Assembly (NCBI RefSeq): GCF_002571385.2
Contig: NW_019217882.1
Location: forward strand, 564,891 to 628,890
DNA length: 64,000 nt
Origin: Stylophora pistillata
Lineage: Eukaryota
Direction of reading: 5' to 3'
Below the pieces are notes generated by a model. That model searched no databases and was not told the origin of the DNA. It worked only from the letters and a program-made list of their open reading frames with translations. The translations under genes were made by a program, and so were the position numbers. Below, one piece after another: positions 49,801 through 64,000 of this stretch. The stretch's first letter is position 1; each line of letters opens with the position of its first letter.

Positions 49801-52800
49801 TTTTTTTTTGCTTCTTTACTTTATTGTTTGTTTGTTTTCTATTTTCGTATTCATTCCGTCATCAATTCTTCTTTCCTTTGTGTTTGTTTCTTTGTTGCTT
49901 TGTTTTTTTTTGTTATTGTTGCTGTTGTTTTAGTTTAGCTTAGTCAAGCATAAATCATGCTGTTCTTCCGATACTGCGCAATATCTGCTAGCACTCATCT
50001 AGAATGTCACAATTAATTGCCAAAACGTTAAAGGTCTTACGAGATAAAACTTGAACTAATTACCCTAACCCTTCAAATATCTTACATCATTCCTCTCAAG
50101 GACTATTTGAAAGTTAGAAAATCGAGATATTCAATTTTAAACTCCATTTAAATAATTTGATAGACTACGACACTCGTCGGCCAATGTATCAGGCCTGTGG
50201 ACTGGACCATCCGACTTCTCCACCAACGACAACACCTCCTCCTCCAACTACTTCAGTAGAGCAGATTATAGGAGGTAAATGAAATGATGATTACGATATA
50301 ATCTCTTTAAAAAATTAAGATAGAAAACACGATAACAGGTTAAGAATAAACCTCCATAATGGAGCCTATTTAATTAGTTTTTTTTCTACGCGGCTTTGGA
50401 TACCACTAGACAACGTGCCAGTTCTCGTTAAAACTGTTATTGAAAAATCTGTTTCCGATTGTTTTTGATGCGAGCCTTTGCGCGCTGATATGAGCATGCG
50501 TCACACTCCTGAAATGTGTGAACGGTCGTGTGAATATTCGTTGAAAGAAGTCAACATGACGCGTCCTGTAATACAAGAGAAAAACTTTGTGCGCTCGCCT
50601 GATAGCAATGAATGACAGGAAGAAAAGAGAGCTCCTCCTATGTAGCTCACATTAGCAAAGCAGGATTTTTACTTGTAGATACTTCGGGGATTTCCGAAAA
50701 TGGATAAAATCTATAAATAAAAAAAAAAAAAAGATGCTTAAGAGAAATCAAAGATATATTGGAATGTCGTCCTAACCTGATCTTTTTTTTGTCTGAATTT
50801 TTTTTTCTCCTCTTAGACATACCAATCTCGCAGTTCAGTATTATCCTTCAGGATGGACACATAGTCAAGACATCTAAATTATTCCCTGTTCGTGTCGGAC
50901 CACATGATGGAACTAAAGTCAAATATCGATGGGAACTTGAAAACGAAGAACTGGTTAAAACTCAGAAGGTTTTTTTCCATGTTTACAACCACCCTGGTGC
51001 TTACACCATTCACGTTACAGCATATAACAGGAACAACACGGTTAATAGTAGCACCATTGTTATTGTGCAAGATGAAATTAAAGGCCTGAAGTGCGTCCAA
51101 AGTACTGTTGCAGTTGTTCCAATGGAAGAGGCAGTAGTCGAATGGGTTATTTCTAAAGGTAAATCAGGTTTTTTTTTTTTTTTCATTTTTTGTAGTGAAT
51201 TACGCGGGCATACTCCTTCCTTTTGTCTTTTAGTTGTTTTTGTTTTGTCTTAATTTCCATCTAAAGGTACCAACCACGCCTTTTGTGAAATGAGAAGAGT
51301 ATAACATGTTATTGAACAACACTAATACTGATCTCTAACCTGCAGGAACAAATGTGACTTTTACGATTTCTCCTGGCGATGGCAGCGCTGAACACACTCT
51401 ACACACATCTACTAATGGTTTTTTCAAAAACTCATTTGCTCATCGTTATACAAGTGCAGGCGTGTACATTGTCTCCATTGGAGCTAAAAACGCTGTTGAA
51501 GATACTCCGAAAATTGTAGAATGCACCGTCTCCGTAGAAGATCCGATTGATAACCTGACTTTGGAAATACCAGTAACTCGAATAAAAATTGGCTCTCAAG
51601 ACCTATATATTGCAGTCGATGAGAGCATTACGGTAGTAGGAAGTCTAACTAGAGGGACTAGTGTCCTCTGCCACTATGACTTTGGGGAACAAGTTTTAAC
51701 TGGAGAAGTCGACTCTTTTAGCAAAACTTATGCATACAGCAAACCAGGAATCTTCACTGTAAGTCTCAATTGCTCGAACAGTGTTAGCAGTATGTACAAA
51801 GAGTCTTTAAGGAGGATCATAGTTCAAAAAGATGAACCGATAGATGACCTGCAGGTAATGGTCCCTGCCACAGCCAAAGGGCATCAGTCTGTGATTTCAC
51901 TCTTGATGTCTTCCGGAACGGCTTTTGTTTGTGACTGGAACCTCGGGGACAACACAACTTTCCAGACAGATGTATCTGACATAGGTAAAAAAGTCCTACA
52001 TCAATATGCTAAAGAAGGACCTTTTGACGTAATTGTTAGTTGCAAAACTCGACACGGCATTGTAAGAGCCCACATCGTTGCTTGGGTGCAAATACCTATT
52101 GCTCACTTAACTTGTACCTCGTTACACCACTACATCATGGTATCGCAAGAGACTCTTTTTAACATTTCTGTTCATTCAGGCTCTAAAGTAACCGCTGTGG
52201 CGGAATTTGAAAATGATCAAAGACAAAGTGTCATATTTCAGGAGAGTTTCCTAAACTGGAAATCATTTATTTTGAAACATTCCTTCTCATCGAATGGGTC
52301 TTATTCCGTAATGGTAAAGGCAGCTAACCTCCTCGGAAGCCTCACCACAAATTGCACACCCATCGTTGTTGTGCAGAATCCTCTGGCTAATATAACTTTG
52401 ACACCTGACAAGAACATCATTCAAGTATCAGACCTTGTTGCCTTCCGCCTTACGACAACAATTTCGAGAGACTTCCAGCCCAGCCATGCCGCTTGTTCAT
52501 GGTCATTCGAAAACAATTCGTATACAACTGACATACCTTTGATATTTACGGAAGGAGAACACACCACACTTCATAGATATATGTCCCCGGGAGAATTCAC
52601 AGCTAAGGTCTCCTGCTCGAATAAAGTCAGTAGAATTGAGCTCAAGACGAATGTCACGGTTCTCAAATTGATCGAGCCGGCTATGACAATTTGTCTCGAT
52701 TGTGACCACTTTTCGGACCTAAAGAGGAATCCATTCATTGAATATTTCGCTCTTGGTGACACAGTGACGTTGTCGGTATCATCTCAAAGCTTCGACAGGG

Positions 52801-55800
52801 CGTATCACTGGAGAATTACAGAATATGGCAATCTTACGACAACCGAACATCACTTTCTTAAAGTAGTTTTAAACAAAACTGGAACATTCACGGCTAGTGT
52901 CCTTGTAGATAAATTGGTCGCCACAATGGCAGCATCAGTTAGATTCATTGTGCAAGAAAAGATTAACGGCATAATACTCCGGTCTAGTGGTTTCACTTGG
53001 CTGAGGAGTGCTACTCGCTTTGAATTCACCCTGTCAAAATTTGATGACGGAAGCTGTTTTAATCTTACCTTGAACGACTCATTAAACACAAAGAAATCCC
53101 AGTGCTCAGAGGGGAAAACAAGAAATTACTTTTTTTCGTGTAACCACACCTATCTCTTCGAGGGTAATTACACGGTTTGTCTCGTTGTTTTCAACAAGGT
53201 GTCAAAAGTAATACGTTGCTTGGGGGTTGAAGTCTCAAAACCAGTTTGTAAGATAGAAAACGTTTCGATATCGGCGAGGAAAGAAGGAACCAACGCATAT
53301 CGAAATAGCTTGAAAGTTTTGAAATACAAAAGATCTGATAGCTTTGAGCTTCAAGGGATTTTTATCAACGGCTGCTTTTTACCGACTTCAAAGAATATCA
53401 AGCTTCTATGGATAATAAAGCGAAAAACATCTGAAAGCAAGGAGCCTGAGGTTGAGGGAGAAGACTCTGGTTCTGTATTAAAAATCGGTCCTCGTTCTTT
53501 GCAGTACGGTAGCTATGAATTTCAATTTGTTGTCGAGCTTGTAAGCCTCGATGTAATTAAACTCTATGGGAAAGTGGCAGAAAATTACTCGATCAATGTG
53601 CAAATCGTTCGTTCTCCGTTGGTTGGCGAAATAAGCGGAGAAAAGAAACTAAATCTGAGCACGGTAGACACCCTAAGGTTGGTTGCATCATTTCATGACC
53701 CTGATCTGCCACCAACGATGGACCAACAGGGTATGGTCTATTACTGGTATTGCAAGACACCGGTAGGTCCGCTTGCTCAGGCTGAACACTTTGTTCACTG
53801 CTATGACGATGCGTTGAAGCCTGAAAACTTCATTAGAATTCTTTCTTACGCGGAGTTCACCACAAGACTGAACAGCTACCATGAAAATAGATATTACATA
53901 TTCACGGTCGTAGTTACGAAGTATGATCTCCCACCTTTGACAGACAATGTTACAGTGTTTGTTTCACCTCCACCTCCATCGCCACCCCCTCCGCCGCCAA
54001 CAATGGAAATAAGGTACGTTGTTGGTAAATGTAGAGTAATATATTTCTAATTGACTACTTTGTTTCGTTATGTTATTCGTACAAGGATTGATTGATAATA
54101 TTGTACAAAAGTGTTGCAATCGATAACTTACCATTTTTCGCAAAACGTAGCCTGGAAAGGTACAGGAGTAATTATAGCAGTCGCGACATATCCCTATTTT
54201 TCTAATGAATTATCGTCTGTACTAAGTGCTATTAAGAGAAAAATAGAGTCTCTCTCTCTATGTTTCGTGGTGATGTATAATATTTGTATATCGAATTCTA
54301 GCCACATCTTAGTGGCTTATTGATGGTATACGAATCATTCAGTCTGATGAACTTCTCCCTCTAACTTTTGATCTTACATGAATAGTTAACAACACTTCAT
54401 CATATCATTATCTACCTCATTATTGTTGAATGTTGGAATGCATAGGGCTTCGAAGTTAATTACACCGATTTTAACCTACTTTTCCAACTTTTGGAACAAT
54501 TATTGCCCTACACGTTTTTCGTATTTTGATGTATTTTGTGTCTGCTGATTTTATTCTCTCCTTATCACAGCCACCTGTGAGCTTCAAAATGCTGCAAAGA
54601 TTAGGAAATTGGCTTGTCCAAATGACATTCAATAGTTTTGCTTATATTCAGTGCTCATGCAGTTTTTTTGTCGTAGAGAATGGGTAGCCCTAAAAATTTA
54701 TTATAGGTATTTTGTTTTAAGTACATGTAACTACTGTTTTGTTTTTCTTAATTTATCAGCTGCCTATATAGCGATTGTCCGCGTAAAGTTTCCCCGTCAG
54801 TGAATCTCAGACTTAAGGCTGTTTGTGTACACGGATGTGGAGTCTCCAATCTGTTTTATCGATGGCAGTTTTTCATTAAAATGGAAACTGAATTTAAATC
54901 GCTGGAGTTTCCAAGCGAGTTAAACGTAGAAACCGATGACGATGACTTCATTGTCCACTCTTACATTTTTGAAAATATTCTGGGCCAGGGAGGTGAGGGT
55001 CTTGTTCAAGTTGAAGTTTGGAGAGACGGCGGTCAAAGGGGCTTTTCCAACAAGACTATAACAGTTAATGAGCCGCCAATACCAGGCAACTGTTCGTGTA
55101 TTCCGTCGCTGGGTGAGGGCTACAAAACAAACTTTCAGGTCGTATGTGATAGCTGGATTGATCCAGACAAACCACTCCGATATAGCTTTAGTTATGGCGA
55201 TGGCAAGACAGTTTTGACTTCCACAGAAAACCCTAGCTCCTCAAAACCTTTTAAGATTTATAAACAGCCAACAGATGGTGATAATTCAATTCTCGTAAGA
55301 ATTACAGTATCAGTTGAAGATTCACTCGGAATGAGGTCTACCATGTCTGTCTTAGCAGAGGTAAGATAGTGTAATTTTTAAGTTTTAGGTAAATTTTACT
55401 TAGTCGTAAATTTTGTTTTATTTTTTTCATTGCCATATTTGACCCAGCTACTGAAAAATATTGAGTTAGAGACATAACTTTTGCAGCTAACTGACGCATC
55501 TTGTTATATGGCATGGCAGTCACCAGTTAATCCAGGCGTTCTATTTGGTTCTTACTTTCGTCGGGATTTTGCCATCCGGACCTTTTCCACGGAAAAGGTC
55601 ATCAGCGGAGTATTTTTGTTGTCGAAAGCCGGTAAATTGAAAATAAACAAGTTTTGGTCCGAGTGCCATATAACAGACTACTTGCTAATCTCGCTTGCCG
55701 TGCTACCACGCGTACAACCCCGGACCAATATTCCTCAGTGTGGCTGGCTATCGCACTCGGTTAACAAGGAGTTGATAATCAGTTTATACCCACTAATTAG

Positions 55801-58800
55801 GGGTTCTATATTTATTGACTGATTAGTTTGCTGGTTGTTTAATTATACCTATTTAGTCTACAGCTGTGCTCATATAATCAACACATCTGATCAGATTTTC
55901 AAGACATATTTTATGCGTTTATTTATTCATTAATTTTTGCACTTAGGTAAAAAAGGCAGAGAAGGCAGCAGTAGATCTGGGAAGTCTAATAAATAACATA
56001 GATTCTGAAAGTACACCTATAAACAATGAGGAGCAAGCTGGAGAGGAATTACAAGTCTTGGGAGACACTTTAGCGCAGCTCCAGCTCTCCAGTCAGCAGA
56101 ATTCTGTTTCAAAAACCGCGGTGTCAAATGCAGTGACAACAAGTAGACCAACAGTCAACCAAAATGGAGACAAGGAAGACGAGCAGCAGAATGATAAAGG
56201 AATGGAGGCAGGAGACCAATCTCAAGAAGTTATAGCCACCACCCCACGGCCAACAATGTCACCAGAACAGATACAATACGCCACAGTAAGCTCTATCGAA
56301 TATGTTGTTGTCATGGCCTCTGTTTGCTAATCAACCGCATGTGCTCGCTGATGGTCGATTTTTTTTCCTGAATAGGGAGCTGCGCCGGTAAAGAGTGCGC
56401 TAAAGTTCCAGGTTCGATCTCTGGCTGGGTCGTTGCGTTATGACCTTAGGCAAGACACTCCCGCACTCTTTTAGCCTTTGTGCATTCAAGATCTAGAGTT
56501 TTCGAGATCGAGTAGCATTTACTTTAAAATTGCAGCCTACCTAAATATCCAAGGTCTTTAGGTTACTTCCTACCTTCGCGGATGTCCTTCGGGAAAAAAC
56601 TCGTACGCGCGCTAGTTTGAAGAAAACCCTAACAAACTATACATTACTGAACAAAGCTTAATAAATGCAGTTTACAATAAAAATATAATTTAGGCGATTT
56701 TTTCATTTAGGAAGTGCCATGAGCCGGTACGGTGTGAAACGACCAAGGGTCTTTCTATTGAATTTATCGGGTATCGGATCCCGCGGCACGAGAAAAATGG
56801 CTGCACAGTCTCATTCACAAGGCATAAATCAAGAAAAGCGTATCAGGCTTTTCCGATATTCTGATTGGTTGTCTAGATATTCGCATCTGAAGTTAGAGTA
56901 GCGAAAGATATGCGAAGCGTGTTGCGTAAATGGACACTACGTAAAAAAATATTTCAAGTATCAAAATATCCTGACACTCTTTTGTTCGTAATCATCCCAG
57001 GAATGTGTTGGCGAAATTTTACGAAAATCGGTCAAATCTACATACCCTATAAATTCGCTCAAAGTGCATGTATTCCTCTCAAAATCAAATGCGAGATTTT
57101 AGCTCCTAAAGGTTTGTAAACAACTAGCGCCACTCCAGGAGATTATCTTGCCTCTTGAAACCACAAACCAATGAGAAGACGAGGCCTCGTAGCGTCAATG
57201 ACAATGGATCAAGGTTTTCCCGGGAAAAGTATCGCGTAGCAGTCACGTTTTTTTTATCTCACTCTGTTAATCGTTTAGTACTGGACGAAGTCGGCGAAGG
57301 AAAAACCCGCGGAAGAAAGGGTAAATCTGTCGCATTATTCTTTTTCTCCATCGGTTTCGTCAGATTCCGACGAAGAATCGTGTTTACAACCTGTGGTGTT
57401 TACAACTTTTCGCTCCGACGAAGGGCTAACGCTCGAAACGTCAGCTTTTATAATCGTAACGGCGGCCAATTTACCATTTCAACTTTGTTGATATATTCAA
57501 ATTATTTTACAAACTGTGGTGTTGACTTTAATTTTTAAGCTGCTTGCCCCAAGGATAATCGAATGCTGCCGATCTTCAGCGGATGCCGAGGANAACGAAG
57601 AAAAACAGCTAGACGACCTGGAAATTTCTTCAGTTATTGAAGAAAATAGAAACAGCAACACGACAACGCGCCAGTTCCGTTCCGCTTCGCATACTTCTGT
57701 CACGCACTCCCCGTAAATAAACATCCGCGAAATTCGCTCGCACTGAAATAACAGTTTGGCGTGTTGGATAATAAATAACTTATTACACGTTTTGTTGTGT
57801 AGTATCGCTAAGTATTTTTACTCGTTATTTGTAAATTGACTCCGCCTACAGGCTCGTCAAAATACGGCACAACTCGAAAAGATACTCAGCGATACTACAC
57901 AACAAAAGTCTAATAAGATATATTTATTTGAAAATACGTTTTTGTAAATAATTCGGACGCTTTTTGAGATTTTAATTTTTTTTTCGTAAACGTAAGTTAA
58001 AATGTGTAACTTGAATCTAGTCCAAAAAAAAATCGACTTTTTCGGCCTCTCAAGGTAGGAAGTAACCTTAATTCGGAAAAAAAAAGAAAAAAAAAAAAAG
58101 TTGCGCTTCATCGAGGTAAAATACAATAATATTTAAGTCTTATCGTTTGTCTCTATGAGGTGAGTTGCGATGTTTTGACTGCATACCGCTAGTTTTCATC
58201 GGGCGATAAGATCAACCTTATCACCTGATAAAGACTAGCAGTATGCAGTTGAAACGTCGCCATTCACATCATAAGTGACCACATCGTGAATTAAACGATG
58301 AGACACTATTCTGATTGGATCCAAGGTCCTTTTCAAAATATGCAGAAGGCCGATCTATATTTTTATTTTATTAACCCATGTATTTGGCTAATCTAGTGTG
58401 ATTCTGCTACTGTTTCAAAAATTTTGATTTACTATCTTTATTCCAGATCATCGAGAAGAGTATATCGAAGTTATCCCTTGTCGCAAGCATTGTGGCCAAA
58501 AGCAATAAAACAACTGTTAGTGATTTTCTTGTTCTGAGTGATACCCTTGAGACAGCCACAGCCAATACAGATATGCTGACGTTAACTGCACGGGTAAAAT
58601 ACAAATTTAGCTTTTAATTATCAAGATATCTGTTACTGTACCTAGCTGCTTTTGAAGCTTAAAGTTACCCCTTTTATGTATTTGGAGCAGGTTGGTTAAT
58701 TACTTATTATTATTTATTATTATTTAGCTTCGCCTAATTACTTCATGAAAACGTTAACATAACTCCTGACCAGCTGCAAAATTGTGGGTGCTATTTTTGG

Positions 58801-61800
58801 CGATTGACCAGAGAGTGGTATCAGCCTGATAAAAGACATAAACAGTTTTTGACATCGAATAGTCATGCCTAAATTCATCTTGAAGACAGGCAGCCTGGCT
58901 GCTTTCTTATTCCTCCCACCACAAAAGGGAGAGATGGATTACCGATCGCTCGTGTACTTATTTTCGCGCACTTTTTATTTAAGAAAATTGTGCAATTTTT
59001 ATTTTTACTTTAAGGAATAGATTTTGAGTTAACACTTCTTTTTCTCTATCCTAGGACGACAGTGCGAGATTGCTGAGCGAGATAACAAAAGCTGTCTTAA
59101 ATAGACCTGATGCACCATTGTCCTTCCTTGAGCGGATGGCAGCAACAATTATGAGAAGCGCAGTGAACATGCTTAGAAGCTTAGCAAGGGGCCCTTCCAT
59201 AAGTCGTGATGGTACAATACATGATTGCGATGATTTAGTAAAGGTAAGGAACATATGTAATTGGTTTACAATCCAAGCAGGTTTCTTTTGATTTCTTTGC
59301 AATCAGCATTTCTTTAAACTATGATAAATGTTGAGCTCCTGAAATAAAACAATTTATCCTTTGCTCTTCACATTCAAAATTGATTAAACTGAAATAATTT
59401 CAAAAATAGATTCTACAGTGACGATTAAGGCTGTTGATGCCTTTTTTTTTTCATGTTTTTAATTGTGTGTTTGTTTGTTTGTTTGTTTTTTTTTTCTTGT
59501 TTCTCTATGTCTGCTTATTTTCTTTCGTTGGCTAGCCTTCTACTAAAAAAAAAAAAAAAAATTTAAACCTGTTACAGCTAACTTTTCTATAGGTTTTCTT
59601 GCTTGCAAAGTGTGTAAAATATATCTCAAAAATGTGTTCTCCTTAAAGGAAAGGAGCAGAAATGCTTCCAAAGAAATCCTGAAAGCGATAAACAACATGT
59701 GCGAAGCTATCTTAAAGAGCAAAACTCCTGGCGATGGATACACAGTGATTAACACCACAGCAATAGAAGCGAAACTTCAAAAGACACTCGTGAGTTTCAT
59801 CAATAACCTTACGATCGTCCAGGACCTTGGAAAGTTCACACTACCAAAAGACGAATTGTTTCCAGATACGAATCATACGCGTGAGAACACGTTAGGCCTT
59901 CAGGTATGCCATATTACCAGGCAATGTACGATTTTGTTTGAATCAACATTTAGAACAAAATTAGATTAACATCAGTACGCGATGAACTTCAAAAAAATTG
60001 TTTCTTCTCGTTTTCCTTTCGATTTCAATGCTATAGCCGTCATGATGCTTGAACTTCATAAACACATTTTACTTGTTTTCTTATCTTAATGACGAATTCT
60101 CGTTTAAAACGTTTGCTGTTACCGCATGATCTCTCAAAGTGTGTTCTTAGCAAATGTTGAATAATCTGCAAGACTGTCTCTGTCGTTTGAGAAGAGTGTT
60201 GCTTTCCTGCACCCGAAATTGTCTGGGTTCACAGTGTGCGAAATTCTCGGACGCGTTCATTTGATTATCAAACAATCTAATGTGTCAACTGAGTTGAAAA
60301 TGTGAATTGGCCACCGTAAAGAGTTTCTTTAGAAATTAACCCCCTTTATTCATTTGATTACAGATGGTTTCTTTCGTGGATAATCCTTACCAAAACTGCG
60401 ACAACGATAACATCACTTCTTCGGTGGTCGCTTTAGAACTGAAAGAAACCAATGGAAGCAACTTGTTAGTCAGTGGTCTAAAGAATGAAATTGATATTCG
60501 AATCCATCACAAATGGCGTGGTTTTGATAGCGATCGAGAAGCCTTTGTTCTTCAACTGGATGAAGATTCATCCAATTTCCACACTTTCAACTACAGCTTT
60601 CCCCTAGCTGCAGTAGCAGTAGAGTTTTTGTCCAGTAGTAAAAATGTGTCTAGTTGGGAAATCATGATAACACCTGGTAGAAGGCCAACAGCTGAGATTA
60701 ATCTGGTCTCGTGGTCTTTCAAAGATAAGGGGAGAACGTTTTTCCTTTTGGAGTCTAGTTCCTTCACAGAAATGGGAAAATACTTCCTGAGAGTAAAAGC
60801 AACACCTAGAACTCTAATGTCTCCCGCACAAAAGAATGTCAGTGTCAATGTCTCGTACAGTCTTAAGATATCTGTTCTAAAATGCCTTTACTGGGATAAT
60901 AACATACAAGGCTGGAATCATGATGGATGTAGGGTGAGTGTGATTTGCTGATCAAAATGTCAGTTTGAAATACCAAACTTCCTAATGTTTTAAAATCATC
61001 CGTTTTCCAATTATTTGATAGATAATTGTGGCTCACAACTGCCGAACTTGGCATGCAAATCACTCCCGAATAAAAACATGACAGCTTCTTATTCTTTACT
61101 GCAACAATTACAACTCCTCTTTCCATTTTTTTTAAATTCATTGAAAATGTACTTCTGCCAACTCAGTCATAACAGTATTTTTTTACATACCATTTATAAG
61201 CCCTCAAAACGTCGAGAAGTGCAATTACCCTTCCCTCCCTCCTAAGAAATAAGGAAAGCTCTGTCCTTAGTATCAGTAACTTTCTACAGTATGTACAGTT
61301 GGACCCCGATAATTCGAAGTCTCAAGGGAAAAGCAAAATAGTTCGAATTATCGGGGGTTCGAATTATAGGGGTCAAAAATAAATATGCAATGTTTACCCC
61401 TGCATAACCGCACAAGCTCCAGCACATAAATACATGCCAATTAGCACCTCGGTAAAAAGCCTAAATTGAAAAACGATACCGACAAAGTGATCCACTTCCG
61501 CTAAAAGTGTGATTTAGCGTGTATTGTTTACTCATATCGCTTCCTTGTCATTAGACGCATGCACTCAACTGCTAGATACCGGCTTTGAATTTATTAAATC
61601 AAGCTCTGCTTAAATAATGGTTTGCCCAAGGAATGATGCTTCGCTTCAGATTAACTCCTACATAAAGGCATATCACGACTACCAGGAAATCTGGAAACCA
61701 AAAGTGAATGAAAAACTTTCAACCAGAAGAGAGGCCCATAACCCAGTGGACAAATATGCTGTATGTGTGTTGCAAGATCAAGAAACCATTGTTGGACATC

Positions 61801-64000
61801 TGAAGAAGGGAAAGAGTGGACGACTCGCTAAGACAATCTTTTATTTTCTGAGAGTGGATAATAGAAATTCATGCACTGTTATTGTGACAGGCATGCCTGT
61901 TAATCTTGGCGACGGTGAAGGGATGCAATTGCCATGCAAACTTTTGTTTGAAGGAGAGAAGAAATACGTTAGTATTCTTGAAAGAGAGTTCACAAAGCTG
62001 AAAGACTAAACTTGGATTTTTCGTCAACTCTTTAGGCACATGGATTTTCATCACGTCGACATGTTAATAACTTTTATAAAGCACCGCACATACAGTAAAG
62101 GGATTAATGCACAGAGAACTGTTTTACACAATTATAAAGGGATTAACGAGCTGTGAAATGTTCGAAACTGTTATTACATAAATATATATTCTAATTTCCG
62201 ACAGCGTCTGTTCTTTTTCGTTCAGCTGGTAACTTAACTTCGAATTATCGGGATAAAATCCGACCTAAGGAAACAGAAATTACTTCGAATTAGCAGGGAT
62301 TTCGAATTATCCGAGGTAAAATGACTGAGTAAAGTGGGGCAAAACCAAGGGAAATGAAATTTTACTTCGAATTATCCGAGTTCAAATTATCGGGGTCGAA
62401 CTGTACACGCATTCCATGATGTGCTATTTCAAGACGTCTTGTTCCAAATGCTGGTTTTCGGTGTGGTTCTGTCCATCTTAGACGTCTATGTACCACTGTG
62501 AAACAATGATTAGCTTGAAGGGAAATAAACAAGCTCATAGCTTTCCTCGAGTCTCGTTAATACAAATTGGCTATCGTTTTACCTTTTAGGTTGGGCCAGA
62601 AACCAGGTCAAGAGAAATTCAGTGCCTCTGTAACCATCTCACGTCGTTTGCAGCTCAAGTGGTAGTAGAACCAAATTTCATTGAATTTGAAATAGCCTTG
62701 AAAGGATTTGTTGAGCTCACTGAGAACCATTTGGTTTTCAGTGTGGTTCTGTCCATCTTAGGCGTCTATATACTGCTGTTGATTTGGGCAAGGAGACGCG
62801 ATATTCGGAATAAAAAGAAGGTACATGATAACTTTGGCTTACTAATCCCAATCGCTAAGCGTTGTTCCTTTCCTTCGCTTTTTAGTATTCCTTCCCAATG
62901 GCTTTTTGTTTTTGGTTATTCTTTGCGTCGAGTTTTTATTTCAATTATAACCCTGACTATCTTCACCACCTGAGAACTTTCAAGTAAAAATTGCAGATTT
63001 TTGTCAATCTTAGTAGATGGCCGTTGATTAAGAAAATCGACTAAATGAACTGATGAAGTCGTATGTATTTTAATTGATTTAAGTGTCAACTTTTAATTTA
63101 CTTGTTTCTGCATGACTTTGATTCGTTTTACTAAGTATTCTAATTTTGAGAAACTCTATTGGAAGATATGATGTGATTTCTTGTAATTTTTTTTTTCTTT
63201 TTTTCAGGCGGAGACTATTCCTTTGGCCGATAACGACCTATCAGATCGCTACAAATACGAAATTCTGGTTTTAACCGGTATGAAGAAGGAAGCTGGAACC
63301 ACTGCCGACGTCTTTTGCAATTTAATTGGACTTGACGCTGAAAGTGGTCCACGCCAACTTAAAGACTCTAATCAAACACGTTTCCAGCGATCAGGAATGG
63401 ACTCTTTTCATCTTACTACTCCTGAACATTTGGGAGACCTAATTAAAGTAACGATTTGGCATAACAATTCTGGGTGCAGCCCATCGTGGTATCTAAAGCA
63501 AATAATAGTGCGTGATCTGAAGACCGATGGTGTGTTTGTTTTTATGTGCAATCGTTGGCTCGCCGTCGAATTTGACGATGGGGAAGTCCTTCGAACTTTA
63601 CTATCCGCAAAGCAAGATGAACTTAGATCTTTTAATCATTTGTTCCATAACGTTACGCAAAGTAATATCAAAGATAATCACTTATGGTTTTCTGTGTTTC
63701 TGAGACCGCAACTGAGCACCTTCACTACTGTTCAGCGCCTATCGTGTTGTTTGGCTCTTCTCTACTGCACCATGCTAACCAATGCTATGTTCTACCAACT
63801 TGGTGAGGAGTTAAACCCCTCGAATACACTTCAGCTAGGACCCATTACCCTCTCTCTGCAACAACTTTACATCGGAATGATTAGCGGCCTCATAATATTT
63901 CCGATAAATATTGCTATTGTAAGCATCTTTAGAAACATAGAACCAACAGTTTTAAAAGGAACGAAGGGAAAGACATCAAAAGGACAAAATACTAAAAGAA
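46762..64000 (+). CDS. Polycystin-1 family (PKD1-like/REJ) gene, 14 exons visible, incomplete at both ends
   Basis: GT-AG, phase-compatible exons 46762-46819, 48427-48719, 49071-49227, 50164-50274, 50817-51158, 51346-54013, 54760-55360, 55947-56285, 58447-58593, 59055-59243, 59649-59903, 60364-60933, 62590-62820, 63208->64000. Domains: F5/8C, PKD repeats, REJ, GPS (CLCNHLTSF), TM1, PLAT. Confidence 0.93.
48427..48719 (+). CDS. PKD1-like exon: F5/8 type C (discoidin) domain, first part
   Basis: SWCAAVEDQEQWLEVDL...AIGLQGR...WVEMFYVQYSTDGNKW; not in the ORF track. Confidence 0.88.
49071..49227 (+). CDS. PKD1-like exon: F5/8 type C domain, second part
   Basis: IFQGN...IFASYIRINPRTWNNSICLRTEIYGC. 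Confidence 0.9.
50164..50274 (+). CDS. PKD1-like exon: Pro/Thr-rich linker
   Basis: 111 nt, phase 1-1, DHPTSPPTTTPPPPTTSVEQ. Confidence 0.75.
50817..51158 (+). CDS. PKD1-like exon: PKD domain
   Basis: YRWEL...HVYNHPGAYTIHVTAYN; 342 nt, phase 1-1. Confidence 0.9.
51346..54013 (+). CDS. PKD1-like giant exon: tandem PKD repeats plus start of REJ
   Basis: 898-aa ORF with repeated (W/Y)DFG...H.Y...G.Y.V.V...N units, then SFHDPD...YYWYC (REJ). Confidence 0.93.
54760..55360 (+). CDS. PKD1-like exon: REJ domain
   Basis: VNEPPIPGNCSCIPSLG...TNFQVVCDSWIDPDKPLRYSF...VEDSLG. Confidence 0.92.
55947..56285 (+). CDS. PKD1-like exon: low-complexity stalk
   Basis: 339 nt, phase 0-0, open; TAG acceptor and ACA|GTAAGC donor. 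Confidence 0.8.
56561..57315 (+). mobile_element. Family X element, left-part copy (intronic)
   Basis: Starts TTTA|GGTTACTTCCTACCTTCGCG; collinear with 33390-34485. Confidence 0.85.
57412..57446 (+). ncRNA. Degenerate minimal type I hammerhead ribozyme motif
   Basis: GCT-CCGACGA-AGGGC TAAC GCTC-GAAA-CG-TC-AGC; CTGA core mutated to CCGA. Confidence 0.7.
57770..57928. repeat. Palindromic (hairpin) repeat
   Basis: TTTTGTTGTGTAGTATCGCTAAGTAT ... ATACTCAGCGATACTACACAACAAAA, arms of about 60 bp. Confidence 0.85.
58136..58303. repeat. Palindrome made of two inverted hammerhead-like motifs
   Basis: Plus: CTGATAA-AGACT...AGTT-GAAA-CG-TC (58225-58258). Minus: CCGATGA-AAACT...AGTC-AAAA-CA-TC. Centred on GATAAG-ATCAAC-CTTATC. 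Confidence 0.65.
58447..58593 (+). CDS. PKD1-like exon (GAIN-A region)
   Basis: 147 nt, phase 0-0, open; IIEKSISKLSLVAS...LTAR. Confidence 0.8.
59055..59243 (+). CDS. PKD1-like exon (GAIN-A region)
   Basis: 189 nt, phase 0-0; donor AAG|GTAAGG. Confidence 0.85.
59649..59903 (+). CDS. PKD1-like exon (GAIN region)
   Basis: 255 nt, phase 0-0; ILKSKTPGD...GKFTLP; donor CAG|GTATGC. Confidence 0.85.
60364..60933 (+). CDS. PKD1-like exon (GAIN-B, first half of GPS)
   Basis: DNPY...ITSSVVALEL...CLYWDNNIQGWNHDGC; donor AGG|GTGAGT. Confidence 0.92.
61296..62403 (+). mobile_element. Non-autonomous Tc1/mariner-pogo-type TIR element carrying a HIRAN-like ORF
   Basis: TIRs CAGTTGGACCCCGATAATTCGAA and TTCAAATTATCGGGGTCGAACTG (21 of 23 match); TA on both flanks (61294-61295, 62404-62405); multiple subterminal TTCGAATTATC repeats; no transposase. 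Confidence 0.9.
61617..62009 (+). CDS. Stand-alone HIRAN-like domain protein (130 aa) inside the TIR element
   Basis: IKAYHDY...W.P...E.L...RE.HNPVDKYAVCV...IVGHL matches the HIRAN signature L.REP.N.yD..AV.V...vG(h/y)l; ATG-to-stop with no disruptions. Confidence 0.72.
   Translation: MVCPRNDASLQINSYIKAYHDYQEIWKPKVNEKLSTRREAHNPVDKYAVCVLQDQETIVGHLKKGKSGRLAKTIFYFLRVDNRNSCTVIVTGMPVNLGDGEGMQLPCKLLFEGEKKYVSILEREFTKLKD
62590..62820 (+). CDS. PKD1-like exon: GPS cleavage motif plus TM1
   Basis: IQCLCNHL^TSFA...VEPNFIEF...ENHLVFSVVLSILGVYILLLIWARRRD. Confidence 0.95.
63208..64000 (+). CDS. PKD1-like exon: PLAT/LH2 domain plus TM2-TM3 (runs off the window)
   Basis: YKYEILVLTG...AGTTADV...FQRSGMDSF...LGDL...IWHNNSG.SPSWYL...FMCNRWLA...HLWFSV...FTTVQRLSCC...NAMFY. 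Confidence 0.95.

Follow-up and report, generated by a model that had tools for sequence, protein, structure and literature searches.

How does a short mobile element without a transposase, lodged in the intron of a host gene, come to carry an undisrupted protein-coding gene, and does that gene serve the element? The element in question spans positions 61296-62403 (1108 bp) of the stretch of Stylophora pistillata DNA that we analysed, 64,000 nt in length and hereafter called the window (Table 1). The features with which the initial annotation had introduced it, namely TIRs, TA flanks, about eight subterminal repeats, a 130-aa ORF and no transposase, were all seen again: the two TIRs match at 21 of 23 nt, the motif TTCGAATTATC occurs eight times in the element with at most one mismatch (two of these occurrences lie within the TIRs), and no match to a pogo transposase was found anywhere in the window. 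That this ORF is the only intact mobile-element ORF of the window was checked lightly and stands less firmly, as one other of the eight ATG ORFs of at least 125 aa has a weak zf-RVT match. This 213-aa ORF (8664-9302, minus strand), whose match falls below the cut-off, is likely the tail of a non-LTR retrotransposon.

Table 1. Features of the mobile element and of the host intron around it (positions in the window)
Feature	Position	Strand	Remark
Left TA target-site duplication	61294..61295		
Left TIR, 23 nt, begins CAGT; one minus-strand TTCGAATTATC motif inside	61296..61318	+	
Two left subterminal TTCGAATTATC-type repeats	61342..61368	+	putative transposase binding sites
Deletion junction, ~1.67 kb of the parent missing, including the entire transposase gene	61404..61408		
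Larger part of the spacer (~230 nt) that separates the start codons of the two divergent genes, transposase and HIRAN	61405..61616		likely bidirectional promoter
Stand-alone HIRAN-fold ORF, 130 aa, open	61617..62009	+	
Four right subterminal TTCGAATTATC-type repeats	62239..62376	+	
Right TIR, 23 nt	62381..62403	-	
Right TA target-site duplication	62404..62405		
Host intron (GT-AG), 546 nt long after subtraction of the element and one TA	60934..62589	+	splits the GPS motif

The placement of the element in the intron that splits the GPS motif was also borne out, since the exons flanking this intron of the polycystin-like host gene (PKD/REJ/GPS/PLAT) join into an open frame; splicing was not confirmed by reads, the flanking exons being almost uncovered in four RNA runs. 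The window copy is an ordinary decaying insertion within an intron. The host gene itself, polycystin-1-like with PKD, REJ, GPS, transmembrane and PLAT regions (51792-63999, plus strand), has an unusually long open exon of 2.2 kb (51792-54047). Just to the right of the element lies a 48-nt direct repeat (62452-62499 and 62732-62779, 90% identical), the first unit of which lies in the intron and duplicates part of the exon that follows. A short stretch at 60285-60328 recurs in a great many RNA-run contigs, whose sequence beyond it is unrelated; it probably marks the border of a high-copy small repeat, which is also nested in one of the longer copies described below (L031). Elsewhere in the window, an intronless ORF of 366 aa (30621-31718, plus strand) belongs to the rhodopsin family of GPCRs.

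The genome-wide search for copies that had been proposed with the initial annotation shows the element to be a member of a repeat family. The 398-Mb genome holds at least 64 matches to the element DNA, and a 25-nt terminus pattern finds 34 TA-CAGT termini where the reversed control pattern finds none, which together exclude a chance origin. TA duplications are seen in the window copy and in two-ended copies such as L002, L003 and L006. In three DNA-type runs the contig depth over the element is about 10 times that of the flanks or more, with contigs that span the right junction. An empty-site allele was not seen in four runs, which does not imply fixation because contigs drop rare variants.

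The origin of the short element can be read from longer copies of the family. Five of them (L031, L032, L004, L030 and L043) retain pieces of a pogo transposase on the opposite strand, head-to-head with the HIRAN ORF, and in the parent the two start codons are separated by about 230 nt. The parent transposase combines the domains CENP-B_N, HTH_Tnp_Tc5 and DDE_1, present as broken pieces in L031 and L032, and a D-30-D spacing could be read by hand in L031 and is also present in the relatives L122 and L130. In L122 the transposase with these three domains is intact, and metagenome contigs contain complete related elements, 2.6-3.0 kb long and ending in TA-CAGT (L123, L130, L149, L155 and L172). 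The autonomous partner for which the initial annotation had proposed a search is a two-gene pogo/Tigger transposon of about 2.8 kb; an intact transposase of the window element's own family was not found among the 29 transposase matches in the assembly.

At least twelve other loci share one identical junction (L002, L003, L005, L006, L009, L012, L015, L016, L018, L019, L024 and L025), at which one deletion has taken out parent positions ~153-1769 and with them the complete transposase coding region as far as the start codon. The junction contains a 19-nt filler that is found without a mismatch within the transposase gene of L004 and L030, and from this we infer template switching in abortive gap repair; templated fillers occur with cut-and-paste elements of every kind, so the filler is no pointer to HIRAN. 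The window copy sides with this subfamily at the four diagnostic sites found, three of which are adjacent, and lacks a further 68 nt. Together, the longer copies and the common junction indicate that the missing transposase is a deletion and that the ORF is the second gene of the parent. We are thus nearly certain of the anatomy: the window element derives by internal deletion from a pogo/Tigger transposon of ~2.8 kb in which the transposase stood head-to-head with a HIRAN gene. The HIRAN gene, which had been regarded as cargo special to the short element, is instead a standing second gene of the autonomous parent. The alternative readings weighed below overlap in part with this anatomy.

Within the family, we scored 28 rows from 30 loci of the DNA search against the majority letter of each column (L027, a duplicate, was left out, the ORF has no match in L028, and L017 and L024 are halves of one copy). 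Among the departures from the majority, 47 are synonymous, 129 non-synonymous and 12 nonsense, giving an omega of about 1.1, and only 5 of the 16 copies with full coverage have an intact ORF. Inserted copies decay neutrally. The initial annotation had held that a working protein is retained by the non-autonomous family itself, and had named decay of the ORF at neutral rates as the observation that would speak against this; such decay is what the copies display, and the claim is not supported. The window ORF, which had been called intact, is so in having an open frame, but it carries eight non-synonymous changes (V7D, G18A, T29K, P40A, D41H, M52L, F70L and V105L) next to two synonymous ones, and four of the eight fall at sites that are conserved among the 92 aligned proteins (G18 in 84, P40 in 79, F70 in 86 and V105 in 79). 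The youngest copies, L008 and L011, have no differences in the ORF and none or one beside it, so their perfect ORFs reflect youth, not selection; both are 5'-truncated, L011 against a run of N, and may be of the full or the deleted type. Neutral decay is expected after insertion even for working transposon genes, and hence is no argument against a function in the active lineage.

These counts bear directly on the view taken before, that the short HIRAN-only elements are a selected helper family that spreads by supplying its protein in trans. One deletion that keeps the whole ORF and the spacer has indeed reached 12 loci, and short HIRAN-only elements occur in other families as well (L084, L087 and L164). 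Contigs from four RNA runs of four studies cover the ORF, one of them crossing the deletion junction, with the majority letter at all ten sites at which the window copy varies. These contigs carry neither strand nor level, their assembly merges copies toward the majority and DNA carry-over is possible; with majority letters at all ten sites, nothing points to expression of the window copy. By established reasoning a protein that acts in trans gives the copy that encodes it no advantage, and with an omega of about 1.1, a minority of intact ORFs and derivatives that have lost the ORF altogether (L038, L039 and L108), we consider a selected helper family quite improbable.

The protein itself adopts, in prediction, the fold that had been suspected. 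An AlphaFold2 model built on 92 sequences (pLDDT 91) matches the six-stranded barrel with two helices of HLTF HIRAN, which is also the best Foldseek match (E 2e-7, TM 0.72), followed by a stand-alone Lactobacillus protein and Rad5. Structural Z scores are 13.0 (HLTF, over 114 residues), 11.4 and 8.6, with the next unrelated row at 5.4, and a profile match to HLTF reaches E 2.5e-6. Against Pfam PF08797 the window ORF scores 20.9 bits, under the gathering cut-off of 24.7, and 37 of the 92 aligned proteins have a HIRAN match at E 0.01; diverged relatives (L089, L091 and L083) pass the Pfam cut-off with 45, 39 and 32 bits. The HIRAN fold is supported by the structure prediction and by the profile match to HLTF.

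In HLTF, D94 recognises the 3'-OH while Y72 and Y93 pinch two bases (PMC5773155), and the cavity holds one dinucleotide, with N90/N91 mutated as a test (PMC4666394). The HLTF segments RDPNNPYDKNAI and VGHLKK align with REAHNPVDKYAV and VGHLKK of the ORF. Equivalents of the pocket residues are present in nearly all of the 92 proteins: N42 (HLTF N91) in 89, D45 (HLTF D94) in 88 and the histidine of the GHL motif, H61, in 88. The position of HLTF Y93 is not aromatic in most (V in 55, M in 14 and K in 11 of the 92), so that the two-tyrosine clamp appears not to be kept as such. By alignment, then, the 3'-end pocket appears to be partly kept, and from the modelled fold it seems rather probable that the protein would bind 3'-OH DNA ends. 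A complex prediction that paired residues 1-400 of the L122 transposase with its HIRAN partner gave a score of 0.14 (mark 0.34), values that speak neither for nor against a contact between the two.

Since the nearest solved folds are the HIRAN domains of HLTF and Rad5, and HLTF is described as binding the primer 3' end at stalled forks (PMC5773155), the protein might by analogy act at host forks, tethering the transpososome to stalled forks or competing with HLTF/Rad5, with a timing tied to S phase. The protein is however a bare domain without a motor, and the insertion flanks at 36 termini show only the TA in an A/T-rich context, which is ordinary for pogo. We regard an action at forks as unlikely.

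Across families, 202 relatives came up at E 1e-5 in a word-based search, and 2715 clusters at E 1e-10 in a profile search, nearly all of whose top matches are short. One protein query returned 36 diverged matches in the genome of the window, of which 20 were fetched: 12 have the gene head-to-head with a pogo transposase, one has only the C-terminal part of a transposase upstream, and seven have none. The 57 metagenome loci divide into 24 head-to-head, nine nested, six partial on the opposite strand, two on the same strand and 16 without a transposase match, eight of which have less than 700 nt upstream. At a distance of up to 2.5 kb, a transposase thus accompanies the gene in 13 of the 20 diverged loci of the genome itself and in 41 of 57 metagenome loci (a redundant set), and distances between HIRAN proteins follow those between the transposases (Mantel rho 0.59, p 0.0002, n = 21 rows); near-identical rows in the Mantel set and among the 57 loci inflate these figures. 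The two trees have their starred tip clades in common, with the deep forks open. Across 14 ORFs of less than 90% identity, omega is 0.079 (lnL -4171 vs -4494 at omega 1), a rough value because synonymous sites are saturated (median pS 0.76), and the 12 least saturated pairs give 0.11-0.45. Among viral contigs, 149 pattern matches yielded no confirmed relative.

These comparisons indicate that, across families, purifying selection acts strongly on the gene, which diverges in step with the transposase. The earlier idea that it matters to the transposon lineage is upheld at this level, between families, where omega is about 0.08, and the HIRAN gene would very likely be an accessory gene that serves the transposon. 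The neutral decay of inserted copies could also be read as that of a captured host fragment, a functionless hitch-hiker of the Pack type. Such a fragment would not be expected to show an omega of about 0.08 and co-divergence with the transposase, nor to be kept through at least two layouts and two pogo families; the cross-family selection and the transposase linkage largely refute this reading, to which we give hardly any weight.

The carriers include both Tigger-type and Passer-like (BrkDBD/ZnF, DD35-36D) transposases. The ZnF/BrkDBD, DD35-36D transposases of L089 and L091, with open frames 570-576 aa long, fit the account of Passer in Gao 2020 (PMC7386202). In the Passer-like L089 (5415-7142), L090 (4295-7553) and L091 (2866-4575), a transposase with a C2H2 finger stands head-to-head with HIRAN ORFs that pass the Pfam cut-off; their near-identical HIRAN copies at several loci suggest possible recent activity, and L089 adjoins piggyBac-like ORFs. 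In the nested layout, the HIRAN gene lies antisense in a GT-AG intron of the transposase, 560-653 nt long and at two intron positions, in six distinct elements (L125/L154, L126, L136/L137, L138, L140/L160 and L148; in L125 at 1888-2449). Splicing in silico restores the transposase frame, L160 having an extra break upstream; in L150 and L151 only the donor could be seen, and in L135 and L165 only the acceptor side. In L147 (216-979) and L166 the transposase is broken after QPMDQGVI and the HIRAN match is on the same strand; an AG acceptor was seen there and no GT donor was found. Short TIR-bounded HIRAN elements without a transposase match occur in other families, in L084 (4534-5385, 852 bp), L087 (~4520-5424, ~0.9 kb), L164 (15-839, 825 bp) and L175 (732-1976), with ends in CCGTA or CAGTGG, and imply that deletions of this kind have arisen repeatedly.

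Placement on the opposite strand to the transposase, whether head-to-head or intronic, in 39 of 41 linked metagenome loci, together with a conserved lysine/glycine-rich loop (K63-K72), could instead point to a regulator or architectural factor that binds the subterminal repeats or the transposase, or to a divergent or antisense gene that tunes transposase expression. The most conserved residues are however those of the 3'-end pocket, and an effect of the RNA alone would not yield an omega of about 0.08 at the protein level. A regulatory role is accordingly one that we find improbable.

We therefore favour, with a probability of roughly 0.7, the reading that the window element goes back by deletion to a two-gene pogo/Tigger transposon and is decaying neutrally, and that its ORF is a conserved HIRAN accessory gene of that transposon, whose product likely binds the free 3'-OH ends that arise in cut-and-paste transposition. 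Under this reading both genes would be expressed from the common spacer, and the transposase of full copies would move the short copies in trans. After excision of the Tc1/mariner type, the released element and the flanks of the donor site both bear short 3' overhangs. Such overhangs suit a dinucleotide 3'-OH pocket, and on this basis we propose that the HIRAN protein may cap them at the donor break or on the excised ends, shielding these ends. That the donor break is the likeliest place of capping, and that templated gap repair would be promoted there and the donor copy thereby restored, is a tentative suggestion. More doubtful still is its generalization, in which a broad and old pogo lineage (Tigger- and Passer-like) would be two-component, with the HIRAN protein taking the 3' ends of the excision break and repair re-copying the element. 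If so, cut-and-paste transposition would be effectively replicative in this lineage, some members of which lock the gene inside the transposase intron.

The window copy leads to a widespread two-gene pogo system. Pogo/Tigger elements have been taken to need their transposase alone, and a second selected gene would mean that such elements encode a DNA-end-handling factor of their own. A selected HIRAN gene opens a test of how cut-and-paste elements steer break repair and gain copies, could improve pogo-based gene-transfer tools, and offers a possible origin for many of the stand-alone 'HIRAN domain-containing' proteins in cnidarian gene sets (nearest Atlas cluster).

Among known systems, the parent resembles Tigger/pogo (PMC7386202 and PMC9219625), with which it shares the TA duplication, TIRs of less than 40 bp, a length of ~2.8 kb, the CENP-B_N, HTH_Tnp_Tc5 and DDE_1 domains and a DD30D spacing within DD29-36D; the label Tigger denotes here the domain set and spacing, and pogoR has the same domain set (PMC7386202). 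Those texts give a single ORF for Tigger (PMC9219625) and, for pogo, one or two ORFs 'encoding transposases' (PMC7386202), whereas the parent and its relatives carry a second, non-transposase conserved gene, divergent or nested in an intron. Tigger being described as working with one ORF, the HIRAN gene is dispensable in other lineages. The word 'HIRAN' occurs zero times in the main texts of PMC7386202, PMC9219625 and PMC7325037, and our searches turned up no publication that reports a HIRAN gene carried by a eukaryotic DNA transposon; a curated Repbase or Dfam entry may already note the ORF.

With HLTF/Rad5 and stand-alone bacterial HIRAN proteins (PF08797; PDB 4S0N, 4XZG and 3K2Y), the ORF shares the predicted fold and the conserved equivalents of N91, D94 and the GHL histidine. 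It differs from the HLTF/Rad5 domains in being a stand-alone protein of 130 aa on a eukaryotic DNA transposon, with a non-aromatic Y93 position, about 20% identity and, for this subfamily, a score below the Pfam cut-off. Transposons with accessory genes have precedents in TBE and Tec of ciliates, multi-gene ITm elements whose extra genes are under purifying selection (PMC7325037). These elements have transposases of other families and other accessory genes (a zinc finger protein and a recombinase), and are neither pogo nor HIRAN carriers. The L31 elements of Puzakov reportedly have a second, SRAP-like ORF, which would be another accessory gene of the DNA-repair type, again outside pogo and HIRAN. 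The coral CMITEs (PMC2872659) are piggyBac-related and non-coding, and hence are not the family of the window element. Pogo-derived MITEs and deletion derivatives such as Emigrant/Lemi1 (PMC1636448) have likewise kept TIRs and subterminal repeats, have lost the transposase and are moved in trans; the short copies described here, at 1.1-1.2 kb, differ from them in that they still carry a whole protein-coding gene.
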